Shown here: piece by piece, positions 1 to 7,854 of the stretch
Numbering within the stretch: the stretch's first letter is position 1
Layout of the letters: every line of letters begins with the position of its first letter
Source: Escherichia phage vB_EcoM_G37-3
DNA: 64,000 nucleotides
Sequence record: MK327941.1
Strand: one strand, 5' to 3'
Position numbers and translations under genes: made by a program
Notes under the pieces: generated by a model
Told to the model about the DNA's origin: nothing
Seen by the model: only the letters and a program-made list of their open reading frames with translations
Databases searched by the model: none

Positions 1-743
1 CGCATTACCAATTTTGTTTTTAGCATTCCTCTATACTCACCGCCAACAAAATCAACAAATGTATCACCTTTATCAATCGCCTTATCTGTTATTTCCTTTA
101 CTACTTGCTCAGTTGACTTCTTGTTTTTACCTGAACATAGTTTACATCTAGATCCATTAACTAAAAACGAGTGACCGGATGCAGTATATTCATGTCCATT
201 AGGGCATTTAACTAAGATATTTCTTTCATAAAAATCTTTATAATCAGACACATAGTCAATGACTTCGTGGTCTTTTTGGTTATTCCTCATCTCTGTTAGC
301 AACTCTTCGCTATTCCAGCGTTTACCCTTAACGCAGAGACAACCATGACCTTGATAAAGATATATAAATTTCTTAGTAAAGTTTTTGTTGCAATCAGGAC
401 AATGCATTAGTAATTCTGTCATTTGACCTGTATATCCTTTAGGAATATCGATCAATGTGTATTTTCCGCATATTGTCTTTAATGCATCATCTATTCTTTC
501 TTTGGTCCAGCGTAAGCGACCAGTGCATTCATGACATTTTACACCCAGTCTAAGAGTATCTAAACTAAATATAGTTGACGTATGTCCTTTATCACATTTT
601 AACTTAAATCTAGTATCCTTTGCGTTGGTGTATTCTCCGACTAGACCATACCATTCATAACCACATGGGATATGTTCTTTTACCTTCTCTAGATATACAC
701 CGAACGGTCTAGGAACTGAATTAGGTTTTCTTTCTTTAGTCAT
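1..743 (-). CDS. hypothetical Cys/His-rich protein with three tandem zinc-ribbon-like repeats (first 247 codons only; gene runs past window start)
   Basis: Manual reverse translation from ATG at 743..741 (AGGAT SD upstream), open to position 1: MTKERKPNSVPRPFGVY...; repeats CDKGHT..CHEC, CPDCNK..GHGCLC, CPNGHE..CKLCSG. Not in ORF track because truncated. Confidence 0.5.
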   Translation of the reverse strand, partial: MTKERKPNSVPRPFGVYLEKVKEHIPCGYEWYGLVGEYTNAKDTRFKLKCDKGHTSTIFSLDTLRLGVKCHECTGRLRWTKERIDDALKTICGKYTLIDIPKGYTGQMTELLMHCPDCNKNFTKKFIYLYQGHGCLCVKGKRWNSEELLTEMRNNQKDHEVIDYVSDYKDFYERNILVKCPNGHEYTASGHSFLVNGSRCKLCSGKNKKSTEQVVKEITDKAIDKGDTFVDFVGGEYRGMLKTKLVM

Positions 744-766
744 ATTTTTATATCCTGTAAATTAAA

Positions 767-785
767 GCGCCGTCACCAGCGGCGC
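767..785 (-). terminator. GC hairpin gcgccg-N7-cggcgc with flanking U-rich tract, downstream of gene 2
   Basis: Inverted repeat read in sequence, between gene 2 stop and next reverse ORF. Confidence 0.4.
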
Positions 786-799
786 TATTTTTATAATCA

Positions 800-1621
800 T
801 TAAAACAATTTCCACACCTTACGAGCATCATATTTCTTGTCTTTGCTCATAAACTGGTAGGTCGGAAGATACACAACCGTGCTCCAATCTTTTGGTGCGA
901 TCTCAATCAGTTTTGTTTGGATGTGTCCAGGCAAATATGCTTTGATCATGTGGTCTGCGCCTCTCATACCTTTAACATCACTCCATTTAATTTTTAAACG
1001 AGTTTTATTACTAAGAGTAGGTGTACTCGCGTATTGTCGCAACAACGCTTCTAAGAACTGCTGGCGAGCTTTAGGTGGCGCATAGTGCAAGTTCAAACCT
1101 AGCATAATCTCGTTTCCCGCTTTAGATGTACCAAATCCTAGACAGATAATCAAGGGGTATCGGTCAAAGAATGGCAAAGAATCCCGATATTTTGGGTTAT
1201 ACGCATAAGTATAGATCCGTCCCACTTGTGGTTTTACTACCTGATGACCTTTTACACCATCCTTGATGGTCTTCATAAACCACTCCTGTGATTTTTCTTT
1301 AGGACGACTCTTTGATACAGCACGCATAGACGCACGAAAATCATTAATCATCATCATTGCGCGTTGCTGCTTATTGAGACCCTTTGCGCCTTTCCCTTTT
1401 AGTTTTTCAACTTCTATTGCTGTTTTAATTTCGCTGGCATAACGAGACATACTTTTAGTGAAAGTCGCATAGGCTATTCCCTTAGAATCTGCAAATGCTT
1501 TAGCTGTCATTCCTTTGGCTTTTGCTTTCGCAAATTCTACACCCAATTCGACCCACTGTTTAGACTTTCGTTTTTTGGGAGACGGCTTTTCGTCTTCTGT
1601 GATTATTTCAAATACGCTCAT
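800..1621 (-). CDS. 2: DNA end protector protein gp2
   Basis: ORF track 273 aa; length and position next to gene 4 match T4 gp2 (274 aa, from memory). Confidence 0.8.
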   Translation of the reverse strand: MSVFEIITEDEKPSPKKRKSKQWVELGVEFAKAKAKGMTAKAFADSKGIAYATFTKSMSRYASEIKTAIEVEKLKGKGAKGLNKQQRAMMMINDFRASMRAVSKSRPKEKSQEWFMKTIKDGVKGHQVVKPQVGRIYTYAYNPKYRDSLPFFDRYPLIICLGFGTSKAGNEIMLGLNLHYAPPKARQQFLEALLRQYASTPTLSNKTRLKIKWSDVKGMRGADHMIKAYLPGHIQTKLIEIAPKDWSTVVYLPTYQFMSKDKKYDARKVWKLF

Positions 1622-1632
1622 AATATTATCCT

Positions 1633-2106
1633 CTATTTGTTAAGCCCTTTAAAGCCAAACACTTTCTTTAATGCATGTTCGGTGATGATCTTAAACTCCA
1701 TGTTATGCTTTTGGCATAATTTCACGGCAGCTAACCATTTTTCAGTATTTTTTGTGTATGTCCATACTTCATGCATATATCGTTGCTTTGTCTTCGCGGT
1801 CATTCTTTTTGGCTTTTCCGGTGGCCTTGTCTCTTTAGCTGGTTTAACTTCCCATAAATGCTCCTTGCCATCATCAAACTTAACGTAAAAATCCATAAAG
1901 TATCTGTGTCTTTTCCCGTCTGTTGATGACTCATAAGGAATTACTACGGTCTCAGATCCCCATTTTGAAACTCTAGGATTGCGGTCTAGCCACTGCATGA
2001 TCCATCTTTCCCAGCTTGAACGGTATGTGATCTTACGTATATCCCCTTTATACTTTTCCTTATTCTCAGGAACATACTTGCCCTTATAAGTGTTAGATCC
2101 TCCCAT
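1633..2106 (-). CDS. 4: head completion protein gp4
   Basis: ORF track 157 aa; position between gene 2 and divergent gene 53; T4 gp4 is ~150 aa (from memory). Confidence 0.75.
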   Translation of the reverse strand: MGGSNTYKGKYVPENKEKYKGDIRKITYRSSWERWIMQWLDRNPRVSKWGSETVVIPYESSTDGKRHRYFMDFYVKFDDGKEHLWEVKPAKETRPPEKPKRMTAKTKQRYMHEVWTYTKNTEKWLAAVKLCQKHNMEFKIITEHALKKVFGFKGLNK

Positions 2107-2121
2107 TTTAGCACCCTTTAT

Positions 2122-2129
2122 TATAAATA
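2122..2129 (+). promoter_or_regulatory. T4-type late promoter motif TATAAATA upstream of gene 53
   Basis: Exact TATAAATA about 33 nt upstream of ATG 2162. Confidence 0.5.
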
Positions 2130-2161
2130 CATAATACTATTTATCAATTGAGGGTGCTAAA

Positions 2162-2716
2162 ATGCTCTTTTCTTTCTTCCCTGCCATTGAATACAACGGC
2201 AAGATGATTACTGACATTGTGCGCAATTACCGCGCCTATTTCAACGCAATAATTTCTGATTATAACATACAAACATATTACATTCAAGGTAGTCCACGAC
2301 CGGAACAAGTTGCATATGAAGTATACGGAAACCAACAACTTTATTGGATCTTGCTGATGCTTAATGACGTATACGATCCGTTCCATGACTGGATCACCGA
2401 TCAAGAGACAGCATATGAATCAGCCGAACAGCGATATGCAAATGTAGGAGGAAATCAAGTATTATACCACGTTGATATTGACGGAAACAAGTATTGGAAT
2501 CTTACCGAATATCCGAAAGGATCAAGCAATTGGTATGATAAAGGGGATATTCATCATCGTCATTTGCAGTTTCAAGGTGCACTATCGGCAGTAGACACAC
2601 TGGAAGATGCGATCCTCCGTAATGAGGAACGACGCAAGATCAAGATCATAGATCCTACACAAATTAAACAATTTATTAACGCATTCATTCGAGAAATGGA
2701 AAAGGCTGATGTGTAA
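2162..2716 (+). CDS. 53: baseplate wedge protein gp53
   Basis: ORF track 184 aa; first gene of forward baseplate cluster, directly upstream of gene 5. Confidence 0.7.
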   Translation: MLFSFFPAIEYNGKMITDIVRNYRAYFNAIISDYNIQTYYIQGSPRPEQVAYEVYGNQQLYWILLMLNDVYDPFHDWITDQETAYESAEQRYANVGGNQVLYHVDIDGNKYWNLTEYPKGSSNWYDKGDIHHRHLQFQGALSAVDTLEDAILRNEERRKIKIIDPTQIKQFINAFIREMEKADV

Positions 2717-2727
2717 GGTGATTAATT

Positions 2728-4527
2728 ATGCTAATGTTTAATAACTCCGTTAAATGGTTTACCGGAATTGTAGAAAACAGGGAAGACCCATTAATGCTGG
2801 GTCGTGTTCAGGTTAGGATTCATGGTATACATCCCTCGCTATCCGCACACGGTGACATTCAAGGTCTTCCAACCGAAGATCTATTATGGATTACGCCAGT
2901 ACAAGATATTACAAGCGCGGCGATCTCCGGTATAGGTCAAAGCCCTACTGGTATTGTTGAAGGTTCAATGGTATTTGGTTTGGCTTTAGATGAACGTTAT
3001 TTAAACTGCGTTATTCTTGGTACTATTGCCGGACAATATACAGAGAAACCACTCACTACAGAGGGTTTTTGTGACCCTTCTGGTGCATATCCTCGTTATA
3101 TTGGTAATGATGTTAATATTCTTGCTCGTGGCGGTATTAACCCAGAAACCGGACAAACAACAAAACCTGATAGTGTCTATATTCGAGATGAAAACACTGG
3201 AGTTGCAGTAAATCCAGACGACGAGCCATTAGACCAAATTCCGGTTGATGATAATCCTGATTTTACAATAGAAAAAATGCTGCGGGGCGATGAGGGATAT
3301 CGCGAGAAATGGTATCTTGATTCAGAAGGATATCCGACAATAGGCATCGGGCATTTGATCATTTATAAGAAAACCAGTGATCTTGGTATTATCAATAATG
3401 AACTTTCTAAGCTGGTAGGGCGTGAAGTTACAAACGGAAGACTTACCGCCGAAGAAGTTAGTAAAGTATTTGCCGACGATATAGAAAAGACTCGTCGTGA
3501 TATGCGCAAACATCCACGAATTGCACCTGTCTATAATAAATGTAATGCCTCTCGTCGCATGGCATTAGAAAATATGGCGTTTCAAATGGGTGTTGGTGGA
3601 TTGGGTAAATTTAAGAATAGTCTTGCTGCGATGTTAGCGGAAGAATGGAAACAAGCCTATGATGGATTACGTCAATCGGTATGGGCTAACCAAACTCCAG
3701 GACGCTCCAGCCGTGTTTCTAAAATTATTTTAACTGGTAACTTAGAATCATATGGCGTAATTGCTCCAAAGAAAGAGGAATCAATTTCTGATGATCCGCG
3801 AGAACGTTTGAGAAATGCCCGTATTGCTGCCTATAAGACGCAGAGAGCAGAAGAAGACCCAGAAGCACCGTTTACCCCACAAGACACACGAATCATGTTT
3901 AAAGAGCCTAAGAGTTCGTATTCTGCAAGGTATCCATATAACCATGTGTACGAGTCAGAGAGCGGTCATATTATCGAGATTGATGATACTCCTTCTCATG
4001 AGCGATATCATCGTAAACATCCTTCTGGTACATTTGAAGAAACCAGACCGGACGGAACGAGGGTAGAAAAGATTGAAGGCGATGATTATCTGATCGTTAA
4101 ACAAGGCCGGAAAGTAAACGTCAAGGGTAATTTGCAAGTTGTTGTTGAAGGTGACGCGCAAGTTTATTATATGGGTAATGTGATGCAAACCGTTGATGGT
4201 AACGTCACTGAATTTATTCGTGGCAATGTTAATCAGACCGTTGAAGGTACTGCTAACATGCATGTTGTTGGTGATGTTATCGCACAGCTTGACGCTAATT
4301 TGACGGCTAACGTCAAGGGTAATGCTGAATTAATGATCGAGGGTAACACTACCGAAACAATTAAAGGTAACTATGATTTAACCGTTGAGGGTAATTTTAA
4401 TATGACAGTCAATGGCACTAAATCAGATCAGGTTAATGGTGACTGGTCCCGTAATTGTGGTGCAAGCGTTAAAGATATTGCATCTGGTACAGTTAAAATT
4501 GATGGTAGCCGTATTGATCTTGGGTGA
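2728..4527 (+). CDS. 5: baseplate hub subunit and tail lysozyme gp5
   Basis: 599 aa; central lysozyme domain (EGYREKWYLDSEGYPTIGIGHLI resembles T4 lysozyme catalytic region); C-terminal 8-residue beta-helix repeats (VxGxxxxx: VEGDAQVY, VDGNVTEF, VEGTANMH...). Confidence 0.9.
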   Translation: MLMFNNSVKWFTGIVENREDPLMLGRVQVRIHGIHPSLSAHGDIQGLPTEDLLWITPVQDITSAAISGIGQSPTGIVEGSMVFGLALDERYLNCVILGTIAGQYTEKPLTTEGFCDPSGAYPRYIGNDVNILARGGINPETGQTTKPDSVYIRDENTGVAVNPDDEPLDQIPVDDNPDFTIEKMLRGDEGYREKWYLDSEGYPTIGIGHLIIYKKTSDLGIINNELSKLVGREVTNGRLTAEEVSKVFADDIEKTRRDMRKHPRIAPVYNKCNASRRMALENMAFQMGVGGLGKFKNSLAAMLAEEWKQAYDGLRQSVWANQTPGRSSRVSKIILTGNLESYGVIAPKKEESISDDPRERLRNARIAAYKTQRAEEDPEAPFTPQDTRIMFKEPKSSYSARYPYNHVYESESGHIIEIDDTPSHERYHRKHPSGTFEETRPDGTRVEKIEGDDYLIVKQGRKVNVKGNLQVVVEGDAQVYYMGNVMQTVDGNVTEFIRGNVNQTVEGTANMHVVGDVIAQLDANLTANVKGNAELMIEGNTTETIKGNYDLTVEGNFNMTVNGTKSDQVNGDWSRNCGASVKDIASGTVKIDGSRIDLG

Positions 4528-4535
4528 GGTAACTA

Positions 4536-5105
4536 ATGGTTGAAATTCTTCCGATGAGTTCAAAATTGGAGGATATCAGCGAGCGAGAAATCTTTGAGGT
4601 GGTGTTCTCTTATAAAGCAACGCCACCGGATGCAAATACCACATACACGATTAAAGAGTTTAAGATCAGCGAGTATCGCCCTAATAAGGGCGTTACCGTT
4701 GAAGAAACTAAAATATCTGGTGAGTATCGGGATAGTTTTTCGCTTGGCGCGGATTCTCTTAAATATATAACGAAAGATAGAATTAAAAAATCTGCCGGAA
4801 GTTTTGATGATTTACCAGATCCAACTACCGCAGATCTATATTATTTTAACGCTCCTACACGTCTACAGGAGGTTTATACTTATAAAGTAACCCTAACCTA
4901 TATCCAATCTGTTTCAGAGTCTTCTGGTGGTTCTGGTGAAGGAAATAGTGGTGGTTCCAGTAGCCGAGAGGGTGCTGGTGAAACTAATCCGCCTCCGGTA
5001 GTAACCGAGCACACAATAGAGAAAGTTTATACTCAAACCGTTTTTGGAAATTGGGATGTGTGGAGTAAACAGTTAAGAGATTATGTTAGAAGAAGTGAGG
5101 GATAA
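4536..5105 (+). CDS. hypothetical protein at the T4 5.1 position, Gly/Ser-rich segment
   Basis: ORF track 189 aa, SD before ATG, coupled to gene 5; no recognisable motif. Confidence 0.55.
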   Translation: MVEILPMSSKLEDISEREIFEVVFSYKATPPDANTTYTIKEFKISEYRPNKGVTVEETKISGEYRDSFSLGADSLKYITKDRIKKSAGSFDDLPDPTTADLYYFNAPTRLQEVYTYKVTLTYIQSVSESSGGSGEGNSGGSSSREGAGETNPPPVVTEHTIEKVYTQTVFGNWDVWSKQLRDYVRRSEG

Positions 5106-5106
5106 T

Positions 5107-5646
5107 ATGATTGAAGTAATTCATTACACCAAAGAAGATGAAATTTTATATAATAGACTACATGAACTATTTTATGAAGTTGACGGAAAGGTTTATAGAA
5201 GGTTCTCTCGTGGACGTTCTAAAGCCGGAAGTCTAGTTGGTGGATTGAAGATAAATCCATGTGGATATAGATATTGGAGACTTGCTGTTGATGGTAAAGA
5301 GTTTCAGAGGTCTCATGTTGTTTATCATATGCATCACGGACACACTCCAAAAAAACCACTACAAATAGATCATATTAACACAAACTCCCTTGACGACCGA
5401 GTTAGCAATTTAAGACCAGTAACAGTTACTCAACAAATGTACAACCAAAATAAACAATCCGATTGCACATCTTCATATATTGGTGTTAATTGGAATAAAA
5501 ATTCCAAAAAATGGGAAGCTAGAATTAGAGCTAATGGAAAACGAATCCGTTTAGGTCTATTTGATAATGAAATTGACGCTGCGATTGCCTATAACACCGC
5601 TGCATTATCTAGAGATTCAAAAGTTAACAAATTAAACGATGTATGA
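5107..5646 (+). CDS. HNH homing-endonuclease-like protein with C-terminal AP2 DNA-binding domain
   Basis: HNH motif HHGHTPKKPLQIDHINTN..DDRVSNLRPVT; AP2-like YIGVNWNKNSKKWEARIRANGKRIRLGLFDNEIDAAIAYNTAA; start taken at ATG 5107 (GAGGGA SD) rather than track ATG 5083. Confidence 0.75.
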   Translation: MIEVIHYTKEDEILYNRLHELFYEVDGKVYRRFSRGRSKAGSLVGGLKINPCGYRYWRLAVDGKEFQRSHVVYHMHHGHTPKKPLQIDHINTNSLDDRVSNLRPVTVTQQMYNQNKQSDCTSSYIGVNWNKNSKKWEARIRANGKRIRLGLFDNEIDAAIAYNTAALSRDSKVNKLNDV

Positions 5647-5661
5647 GGATGGGGGTGTTTA

Positions 5662-5955
5662 ATGGCTGGATTATCCTACGATAAAGCTAAAACTACAGGG
5701 CACGGAAACTACCCACCTACTGTAATTAATGCAACTCAATCGAAGGTATTTGTTGAGGGTATCCCTGTATTAGTAGAAGGAGACCCAATTACACCACACA
5801 CAAAAACAACAAAGCCTTATGATACACACGGGGGAACTACGGTCGCCAGTACCCCGAAAGTCTTTGTTACCGGAAAGAAAGCAATTCAAATGGCAGATCG
5901 TATTAGCTGTGGCGATACCGTCGCTATGGCATCACCGAAGGTTTATATCAAATGA
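5662..5955 (+). CDS. 5.4: PAAR-repeat tail-spike tip protein gp5.4
   Basis: 97 aa, same length as T4 gp5.4 (from memory); overlaps gene 6 start (ATGA). Confidence 0.8.
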
Positions 5956-7854
5956 CAAAGCAAAAGATTACACAAATTCCTGATATTTTTAATGCTGCTA
6001 CATTCGATGAAATTAAAAGCGCATTAACAGACTGGATGAGAAACCAGGAAGAATTTAAAGATTTTGATTTTAATGGTGCTGGTATTAACGTATTGATGGA
6101 CTTGCTCGCATATAATACCCTTTATATTCAGCAATTCGCCAACGCCGCGCTATATGAATCTTTTATCAGAACGGCAATTAAGCGTAGTTCAGTTGTTCAA
6201 GCCGCGCAAGATTTAGGATATTTGCCAGCAAGTAAAACTAGTGCATCAACTACAATTATGTTGCATGTATCACATCCACGAAATCCGGCAAGTATTCGAA
6301 TCCCACGAGGAACTAAATTTATTGCAAGTGTGGACCGCCAGACGTCTTATCCGTTTGTTACTACAGAAGACGTTGTGAGCGTTTTAGGTTCAAATGGTTT
6401 ATATACTCCTATGCTTAAAGTCGCACAAGGTCGTATTGTTCGTACAGAAATGTTATTTGATCCGAAGAAACAAATTCTGATCCGCGATCCTGATATTGAC
6501 CGCGCTCAGGTTAAATTGTGGGTGGATGGGGCTGAATGGAAAGACTGGACGCGAGAAAGTATTGTTAATGCAACTGGCGCCAGTAATATTTTCTATATGC
6601 GTGAAACCGTAGACGGTCATACAGAAATCTTCTTTGGTGAAGGTGAATCAACTTTATCTGCTGCTGGCGGTGCACTGGAAGCAAATTATATTGGTGGACT
6701 TAAGCCGTCAACTGGTGCTAATATTGTTATTGAATATATTAGCACTAAAGGCGCGGAAGCAAACGGATCTGTCAATTTCACATACGCGGATACCCTTGCA
6801 TCTATCTCTATTGTTAAAATTATTGAGAATCCGACAAATGATCGTGATTATGTCGGTGCAGATGGTGGTGGTGATCCTGAATCAATCGAACGTATTCGTG
6901 AACTTGCTCCGGTAATGCGTGAATCTCAGCGTCGTTGTGTTACTGCTTCCGACTATGAGGCTTTTGTATCTAGCCGTTTTGGTAGTATTGTTCAGGCGGT
7001 ACAATGTTTCACCGATCGAGAAAAACCAGGTTATGCTTTTGTTGCTGTTAAGCCTAAATCTGGTTTGCGATTGACAACTATTCAAAAAGAAGATATGCGG
7101 GATTATCTGGCAAAATATAACCTTGCCCCTATCACACCGAGCATCATTGACCCTAACTATCTGTATATTAAACAGAATATTAAAGTTTCCTATTCAATCA
7201 ATGACTTATCAGAATCAGAGCAGTGGTTGCGCGGTGCGGTTATTGATCAGATTGATGCATATTATACCGACGAAGTGGAAATTTTTAACCAGACCTTTAG
7301 TAAGTCTAAAATGCTTGCGCGTATTGACAAAGCTGATGTATCTGTGATAGGTTCTAGTGCAGAAATAGAGATGGTTCGAGAGATCGACAACTTCTATAAA
7401 GCACCTATGGCGGGAATCAAGTTTTTAAACCAGTATAAGAGCGGAATCAAGTCTAGTTCGTTCAACTTCGAAAAGGACGGTAAACAATACCCGATCCATT
7501 ATGTAAGTACAGAAATGAACAAAGAATCCGGTTTAGCTAAATTGCTGGTTGGACCTTTCCCTGTTGATTCTACAATCGCTTTACCGCACTTCCGGCACTG
7601 ATTTTGATAAAGAGGTTATTGACGGTGCGGACCTATACTTTGAGGTTGGAGAGGTTCAGCATTATGACGACCTTATTTCATGGGATCTGGGTAAACTGAA
7701 TATCAATAGCGATCGCTTTACTGGTTCATATATTGAGTTGACAGCTAAACCGATTGCTGATAACATCTTTACTAAAGACGGTTCTTTGATCGTGTTTGAA
7801 AACGATCTCCGTCCTCAGTACACAACTATTAGTCTGGAGGCAATTGCTCAATGA
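5952..7854 (+). CDS. 6: baseplate wedge protein gp6, interrupted by an apparent +1 frameshift near 7550-7600
   Basis: Track ORF 5952..7601 (549 aa) continues in +1 frame as 7549..7854 (track start is TTG, i.e. not a real start); combined ~635 aa vs T4 gp6 660 aa; 3' end overlaps gene 7 start. Confidence 0.75.

Follow-up and report, generated by a model that had tools for sequence, protein, structure and literature searches.

Homing endonuclease genes of the T5orf172 type are enriched in certain phage lineages, and 87% of 229 such genes bear CapR, DUF723 or DUF4379-type zinc fingers, often arranged as 'beads on a string' (Barth et al. 2023, PMC10448857). They adjoin essential genes and lie at boundaries of genetic exchange, and T4 has no T5orf172 genes (PMC10448857). 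The T5orf172 domain belongs to the GIY-YIG clan (PMC8263062), and its profile is highly related to that of MUG113 (PMC10448857). CapR, encoded by the Vibrio cholerae satellite PLE, represses the ICP1 capsid operon; joint mutation of its four conserved cysteines abolishes in vitro DNA binding, and the protein is related to the N-terminal domains of putative ICP1 homing endonucleases with a C-terminal T5orf172 domain (Netter et al. 2021, PMC8096241). A T5orf172 domain put to a different use is found in Odn (gp88) of ICP1, the wild type of which cuts double-stranded DNA in vitro, while a Glu-to-Ala mutant is inactive (Barth et al. 2021, PMC8263062). For the T4 pairs SegG/gene 32 and SegF/gene 56, the neighbouring gene is cut and resected, and in the repair from the donor whatever lies between the cut site and the endonuclease gene is co-converted (PMC2988022).

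The open reading frame (ORF) described here is cut by the left edge of the analysed stretch of Escherichia phage vB_EcoM_G37-3 (MK327941.1; 64,000 nt, hereafter the window), and is probably the N-terminal two-thirds of a free-standing T5orf172 (GIY-YIG superfamily) homing endonuclease. Like ICP1 gp174 and gp165 and the proteins of Vibrio phages Helene and 184E37.3a, all described by Barth et al., the full-length protein combines an N-terminal finger array with a C-terminal T5orf172-type domain. Similarly, its gene lies beside an essential gene, occurs sporadically among close relatives and sits at a boundary between conserved and exchanged sequence. The relationship to the protein of Vibrio phage 184E37.3a, which is included in PMC10448857, was also apparent as a direct tblastn match (30% identity over 92% of the protein). 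In contrast to the family described so far, the host phage here is a T4-type coliphage (Krischvirus), the Pfam T5orf172 score falls just under the cutoff, and three of the four fingers follow the pattern C-x3-H...C-x2-C instead of the CxxC...CxC described for CapR. The text of Barth et al. 2023 (PMC10448857) and the supplements searched mention neither JSE nor RB49. The protein is a member of a known family, and its gene is already in public records (JSE, 2009).

The truncated ORF and its finger array

The ORF runs on the minus strand from an ATG at 743-741, with AGGA 9 nt 5' of it, and remains open for 247 codons to window base 3, where it exits the left edge; the two remaining minus-strand frames across window 743..1 are stop-rich. 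This agrees with a preliminary description of the sequence, which had noted an edge-cut ORF on the reverse strand downstream of gene 2. The piece contained in the window (1..743, minus strand) represents the 5' 741 nt, or codons 1-247 of 380, of an endonuclease gene whose orthologue in JSE is EpJSE_00134 / YP_002922206.1 (380 aa; RefSeq calls the product 'endonuclease', GenBank 'hypothetical protein'). Between the window copy and this orthologue, 2 of 247 residues differ, and the window copy matches PHROG 681, 'endonuclease', with an E-value of 3e-34. The 3' third beyond the window edge, read from JSE, comprises 133 residues and holds the rest of finger 4 and the nuclease domain.

A megablast search with window 1-2200 returned JSE with 99.5% identity over the whole stretch, as well as AV108 (whole stretch) and PTE-Eco09 (95% of the stretch) at 99.4-99.6%, all three of which have a 380-aa ORF at the equivalent position. 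Another 59 records, including RB49, Phi1 and GEC-3S, aligned from approximately base 810 onwards only. Of 63 related phage records, 4 carry the ~1.2-kb endonuclease gene. Within the window there is no second copy of the gene, the internal repeats alone giving cross-matches. A large protein collection contained 45 homologues of the JSE protein, and the alignment used throughout comprises 40 sequences. By tblastn, the family was found in 559 phage records (Escherichia, Vibrio, Salmonella, Klebsiella and Aeromonas phages), among which jumbo phages carry several copies, and a JSE-like gene arrangement was seen on the 2.3-kb metagenome contig ERZ27234671. Sequence searches of the PDB with the JSE protein and the 40-sequence profile yielded nothing meaningful, and an NCBIfam search of the endonuclease protein yielded no family.

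The Pfam CapR profile (PF21817) matched the 247-aa fragment in three stretches, with an E-value of 1.7e-8 and 35 bits (cutoff 24.2). On the full-length JSE protein, both CapR (4 stretches, E 3.8e-12) and DUF4379, a 'probable treble clef zinc finger' (E 3.7e-8), scored above their gathering cutoffs, and CapR matches were obtained for 39 of the 40 homologues, in which the finger cysteines are invariant or nearly invariant. Repeat R1 (aa 27-91; window 471..665, minus strand) has the predicted ligands C50, H54, C70 and C73 and is followed by a linker helix. R2 (aa 92-155; 279..470, minus strand) is divergent, with the predicted ligands C115, C118, C135 and C137 in a CxxC...CxC arrangement, while R3 (aa 156-222; 78..278, minus strand) returns to the first pattern (C180, H184, C200, C203 predicted) and gives the best DUF4379 match, at aa 177-206. 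Finally, the first 25 residues of R4 (aa 223-247 of 223-280; 3..77, minus strand) are present before the window edge cuts the repeat, and its predicted ligands C249, H253, C269 and C272 lie beyond the window and were read from JSE.

The similarity between repeats was expressed as Smith-Waterman z-scores against 500 shuffles, using the full-length JSE protein. Scores of 9.5 (R1-R3), 10.8 (R3-R4) and 6.3 (R1-R4) were obtained, with R2 as the outlier (4.4 with R3, 3.7 with R4 and 0.4 with R1). The CapR matches and shuffle z-scores together confirm three tandem Cys/His repeats, as had been proposed from the letters alone. The length given for them, ~60 aa, did not hold, since the period is 65 aa (C50 to C115 to C180), followed by 69 aa to C249, and a fourth repeat, cut by the edge, starts at aa 223. 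Likewise, the consensus motif suggested for the repeats, K-C-x2-G-H...C-x2-C-x-G-(K/R)..W, is found in R1 (KCDKGH...CHECTGRLRW) and for the most part in R3 (KCPNGH...CKLCSGKNKK), where the Trp is absent, but not in R2, which has the variant CxxC...CxC (HCPDCN...CLCVKGKRW). The suggestion that the repeats constitute a nucleic-acid-binding module is supported by their assignment to the CapR/DUF4379 treble-clef zinc fingers, which would be expected to bind DNA: the four conserved cysteines of the CapR domain are needed for in vitro DNA binding (PMC8096241). The finger domain is homologous to that of CapR, after which PF21817 is named, and R2 shares its CxxC...CxC pattern. CapR, however, is a repressor with one DNA-binding region and no nuclease, whereas the present protein has four fingers and an apparently intact nuclease domain, and it is not regarded as a CapR orthologue because CapR lacks such a domain.

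The JSE and ERZ27234671 alleles, the latter at 75-1217 in locus numbering, differ at 9 aa, 6 of which are clustered at residues 14-36 (window ~636-704), in the stretch that leads into finger 1 and in its first strand. At positions 27-28, CC, CG and DG occur in the three JSE-type alleles (JSE, window and ERZ27234671). This cluster may reflect local diversification or a small recombination patch.

The probable C-terminal nuclease domain

On the C-terminus of the JSE protein, T5orf172 (PF10544) scored 19.4 bits (E 0.0015), just short of its cutoff of 20, and MUG113 (PF13455) 18.6 bits, with a cutoff of 22.3; both profiles belong to the GIY-YIG clan. Among the 40 homologues, 5 matched T5orf172 and 6 matched MUG113 at E <= 0.01. 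The threshold used in PMC10448857 was E <= 0.001, which the JSE protein narrowly misses. Pfam GIY-YIG (PF01541) and NUMOD gave no match on the JSE protein, and PF01541 was touched by one of the 40 homologues (E 0.0017).

Across the 40 homologues, Y286, K300, G302, T304, R311, E341, K345 and the stretch GYTET361-365 are invariant or nearly so. In an AlphaFold2 model built from the 40-sequence alignment, pLDDT averages 86.9 overall and 92-98 in 10-residue blocks from residue 281 onwards. The model places the nuclease core after four units of finger and linker helix. It predicts strands at 283-292 and 295-304, a helix at 308-317, a strand at 322-331 and a helix at 334-348, and this predicted element order, beta-beta-alpha-beta-alpha, is that of the GIY-YIG core fold. 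Y286 (in YIY), R311 and E341 are located on the expected secondary-structure elements of the model, and from the topology we infer that R311 and E341 correspond to I-TevI R27 and E75. The second GIY-YIG motif reads KFGIT, with Phe301 where canonical enzymes carry Tyr; a KFGIT-type motif is the norm for the family and not a sign of decay specific to this copy. A Foldseek search with the whole five-domain model was uninformative. For the ~80-residue nuclease domain, the top three matches were GIY-YIG domains, with more found lower in the list, all at modest scores, which are expected since the domain is only ~80 residues long. Judged from the model, the fold and the conserved residues make up for the borderline Pfam T5orf172 score, and we are confident that the protein is a T5orf172/GIY-YIG-type nuclease with a zinc-finger array. 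The preliminary description had advised that the missing C-terminus be searched for a nuclease domain, and the JSE residues provide both a T5orf172/GIY-YIG-like domain and the fourth finger.

The nuclease-domain matches below the Pfam thresholds and the Phe that replaces the second GIY-YIG Tyr could also be expected of a DNA-binding regulator whose nuclease domain has decayed, such as a CapR-like repressor of late genes 2 and 3, and CapR itself is a zinc-finger repressor derived from a homing endonuclease (PMC8096241). Such a role appears very unlikely here. CapR is devoid of a nuclease domain, whereas the domain in the present protein is full-length and folded with confidence in the model (block means 92-98), its Tyr, Arg and Glu are invariant in the 40 homologues, and the KFGIT-type motif is typical of the whole family.

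The gene 2 locus and its foreign flank

The right-hand neighbours of the gene in the window are gene 2, encoding the DNA end protector (273 aa; 800..1621, minus strand; PHROG 429, E 6e-70), and gene 4, encoding the head closure protein (1633-2106, minus strand; PHROG 218, E 7.5e-61), after which come genes 53, 5, 5.1 and 6 on the plus strand. These neighbours identify a T4-type phage, and JSE, matched over the whole of window 1-2200, belongs to the RB49 group (Krischvirus). The gp4 product (window 1633-2106, minus strand) matches the Pfam TnsA-like endonuclease N-terminal domain (PF08722, E 5.7e-21) and, more weakly, PHROG 'endonuclease' families, a nuclease-like fold in a head-completion protein. 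The JSE annotation of gene 2 spans 747 nt, 75 nt less than the 822-nt version of the window and RB49. The full 822-nt span in JSE (5800-6621, locus numbering) contains two stops and encodes altered first ~15 residues, while gp2 is intact (273 aa) in the window and RB49. An indel close to the start of JSE gene 2 seems to be responsible, which could be a genuine frameshift or an error of sequencing in the record.

The ORF had been thought to lie in place of T4 gene 3, which proved incorrect. JSE, AV108 and PTE-Eco09 share the order gene 1, gene 3, a small plus-strand ORF (84 aa), endonuclease, gene 2 and gene 4, and in RB49 and JK32 the order is identical minus the endonuclease gene. Gene 3 is intact further downstream in the three carriers, and by their gene order it lies ~1.5 kb past the left edge of the window. 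The one point in favour of a structural or assembly protein replacing gp3 (tail completion) is the position in the T4 gene order (3-2-4). An intact gp3 ~1.5 kb further on in every near-identical genome, together with the absence of the ORF from RB49 and ~59 relatives, leaves this idea with practically no probability. It was rejected, as the PHROG and Pfam matches were to endonuclease and zinc-finger families only and a separate gene 3 is annotated in JSE, AV108, PTE-Eco09 and RB49; no alignment to gp3 or to another known structural protein was obtained in these searches, all PHROG matches being to 'endonuclease' families.

When JSE was aligned with RB49, the gene appeared as a clean insertion of ~1.2 kb. 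The left junction is a shared TTA stop, located 6 nt past the bidirectional terminator of the small ORF, and this stop terminates gene 2 in RB49 and the endonuclease gene in JSE. No conversion tract was observed on the left flank of the insertion. On the other side, a 56-nt spacer (744..799, minus strand), found in endonuclease-carrying genomes only, separates the gene 2 stop from the endonuclease start. It contains a G+C-rich stem-loop at window 766-786 (AGCGCCGCTGGTGACGGCGCT), followed by TTTAATTT. The hairpin scores as a terminator on both strands, and together with TTTAATTT it looks like a terminator or attenuator. It could limit how much endonuclease is expressed by read-through, as has been proposed for the terminator that precedes mobE in T4. 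The spacer also harbours two TATAAAAA motifs that agree at 7 of 8 positions with the T4 late-promoter consensus, TATAAATA. Since the agreement is 7 of 8 only and an annotated RB49 late promoter reads TCTAAATA, no promoter was assigned, and a sigma-70 scan upstream of the endonuclease gene gave nothing convincing.

Over 12 kb, JSE and RB49 are mostly 94-100% identical, a few 100-bp windows having 89-90%. Identity falls to 57-82%, however, in five consecutive 100-bp windows that adjoin the insertion on its right and cover ~500 bp of gene 2. This region corresponds to a foreign, endonuclease-linked 3' tract of gene 2 that covers codons 116-273 plus the stop (476 bp; window 800-1275, minus strand; 803-1275 without the stop) and has a sharp boundary at 1275/1276. 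Compared with RB49, 105 codons of gene 2 differ (70 synonymously and 35 not), of which 101 fall inside the tract, while the other 346 nt of the gene contain 4 nucleotide differences only. Within the tract, identity is 69.7% to RB49 and 78.6% to JK32, RB49 and JK32 are 77.1% identical to each other, and the three other endonuclease-carrying genomes are at least 99.8% identical. All four endonuclease-carrying records have the tract, and the RB49 type is found in all listed records without the gene. The tract derives from a third lineage, given that RB49, JK32 and the tract are mutually diverged. Its donor was absent from the phage collection searched, where the best match outside the clade was JK32 (79%), which has no endonuclease gene at the gene 2 locus.

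We interpret the tract, from the comparison of these genomes, as a co-conversion or co-transfer tract, which probably contains the cleavage target or is its immune allele. The combination of a rare gene with a sharply bounded foreign allele fits the flank pattern known for free-standing homing endonucleases. In the proposed mechanism, the four tandem CapR/DUF4379 treble-clef fingers, joined by helical linkers, would jointly read an extended DNA site, and the GIY-YIG-like C-terminal domain would cut the DNA nearby. In a mixed infection with a gene-free RB49-type phage, the enzyme would cut within or close to the 3' part of gene 2. Resection of the break would be followed by repair that copies the donor genome and thereby transfers the endonuclease gene, the 56-nt spacer and up to ~476 bp of the donor gene 2 allele, presumed to be uncuttable. 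By analogy with the T4 enzymes, one would look for the target within or close to the last 476 bp of gene 2 in RB49-type phages, and expect the linked allele to resist cleavage. Nuclease activity, target location and active homing are what we infer from these sequence patterns. That the enzyme is a currently active homing endonuclease with its target in gene 2 of RB49-type phages is a reading that we favour slightly. In the literature, we found no cleavage, target site or homing for CapR-finger T5orf172 proteins of T4-type phages. The foreign gene 2 tract and the gene could also have arrived by ordinary recombination, with no need for endonuclease action. The earlier suggestion that the ORF is possibly part of a homing endonuclease gains support from the finger array with its nuclease domain and from the signature of mobility at the locus.

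The comparison with T4 Seg enzymes and I-TevI reveals a number of common features (PMC2988022). These include a free-standing intergenic gene beside an essential gene, a GIY-YIG superfamily fold, a modular combination of nuclease and DNA-binding parts, and a neighbouring gene in which cleavage, with asymmetric co-conversion of flanking markers, would be expected, and the spacer hairpin may be compared with the terminator upstream of mobE. The nuclease domain, however, is N-terminal in those enzymes and C-terminal here, and their NUMOD, IENR1 and HTH modules contrast with the zinc-finger array of the present protein. The absence of PF01541 and NUMOD matches and the C-terminal position of the nuclease show that the endonuclease is not of the Seg/I-TevI type.

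Another possible role would be that of a domesticated nuclease, used against a competitor such as a co-infecting phage, a satellite or a plasmid, and kept for its benefit to the phage. T5orf172 domains have been co-opted in this manner in Odn (PMC8263062), with which the present protein shares the type of catalytic domain and the conserved catalytic Arg and Glu, and odn-like genes are predicted in E. coli phages (PMC10448857). T4 homing endonucleases, moreover, also cause marker exclusion of relatives (PMC2988022), so that selfish and competitive roles overlap. Odn-type proteins, however, bear a target-derived RepA_N domain for targeting, and Odn acts as an anti-satellite weapon and not as a homing element, whereas standard CapR-type fingers are found here. 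The rarity of the gene (4 of 63 records) and its foreign flank have the look of a recently arrived selfish element, and a PADLOC search gave no defence-system match for the protein. We consider domestication unlikely, and the homing endonuclease remains the preferred explanation.

Relatives, neighbouring endonucleases and possible finger diversification

Members of the family are not confined to the gene 2 locus in this clade. RB49 itself has a 485-aa homologue, RB49p240, directly downstream of its gene 32 (2548-4005, locus numbering), the gene that flanks segG in T4 (PMC2988022). A 2010 census of T4-related phages listed 7 homing endonuclease genes in JSE and 2 in RB49, with no GIY-YIG-class gene for the latter (PMC2993671, Table 5), and the T5orf172/CapR-finger family apparently went unrecognised there.

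In 13 homologues, the C-terminal ~65 aa are 93-100% identical (mean 97%), in contrast to finger arrays that are 22-84% identical (mean 35%); the JSE-type protein shares 44% identity only with this C-terminal cassette. Several of the Krischvirus matches lie at ~139-140 kb, where the RB49 copy adjoins gene 32, and owing to this shared position they may be alleles of one locus. Either fingers have been shuffled before a fixed cutter in these 13 homologues, or the 3' end of the gene is anchored to a conserved backbone. A bolder extension, that the four-finger array is a modular DNA-reading code which is retargeted by shuffling or diversifying fingers before a fixed cutter, is speculative and, in our estimation, rather unlikely. 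If it were true, with each finger contacting a definable block of bases, the family would offer a natural, compact and reprogrammable nuclease scaffold, and the code could first be worked out on a tractable pair, the JSE-type enzyme and its gene 2 target.

Further endonuclease genes were observed close by. In the window, a second homing-endonuclease-like gene, a 187-aa ORF with HNH_3 and AP2 domains (5083-5646, plus strand), occupies the space between gene 5.1 and the PAAR gene. JSE and RB49 lack it, their 5.1 abutting the PAAR gene, but vB_EcoM_G5211 has a 100% identical copy, so the window genome combines a JSE-type finger endonuclease with a G5211-type HNH-AP2 gene, a combination matched by no single record examined. 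In AV108, an additional HNH_3+AP2 gene separates gene 3 from the small ORF (1064-1597, locus numbering), and PTE-Eco09 has a NUMOD3-containing endonuclease between genes 4 and 53 (4606-5301, locus numbering). From the gene content of these records, the gene 3-2-4-53 neighbourhood is a hotspot of endonuclease genes in the clade.

For phage biology at large, the finding changes little, adding another free-standing homing endonuclease to a phage group rich in them. It does, however, place the recently described T5orf172/CapR-finger family in T4-type coliphages. The JSE/RB49 comparison is a clean natural example, in which a 1.2-kb gene is accompanied by 476 bp of foreign sequence, with a sharp boundary, in an essential gene, and the pair offers an easily handled E. 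coli system in which the first target of a zinc-finger-array T5orf172 enzyme could be mapped and the modularity of its recognition addressed. Finally, on the proposed reading, the insertion of the endonuclease would explain the local mosaic structure of gene 2 in this phage clade.
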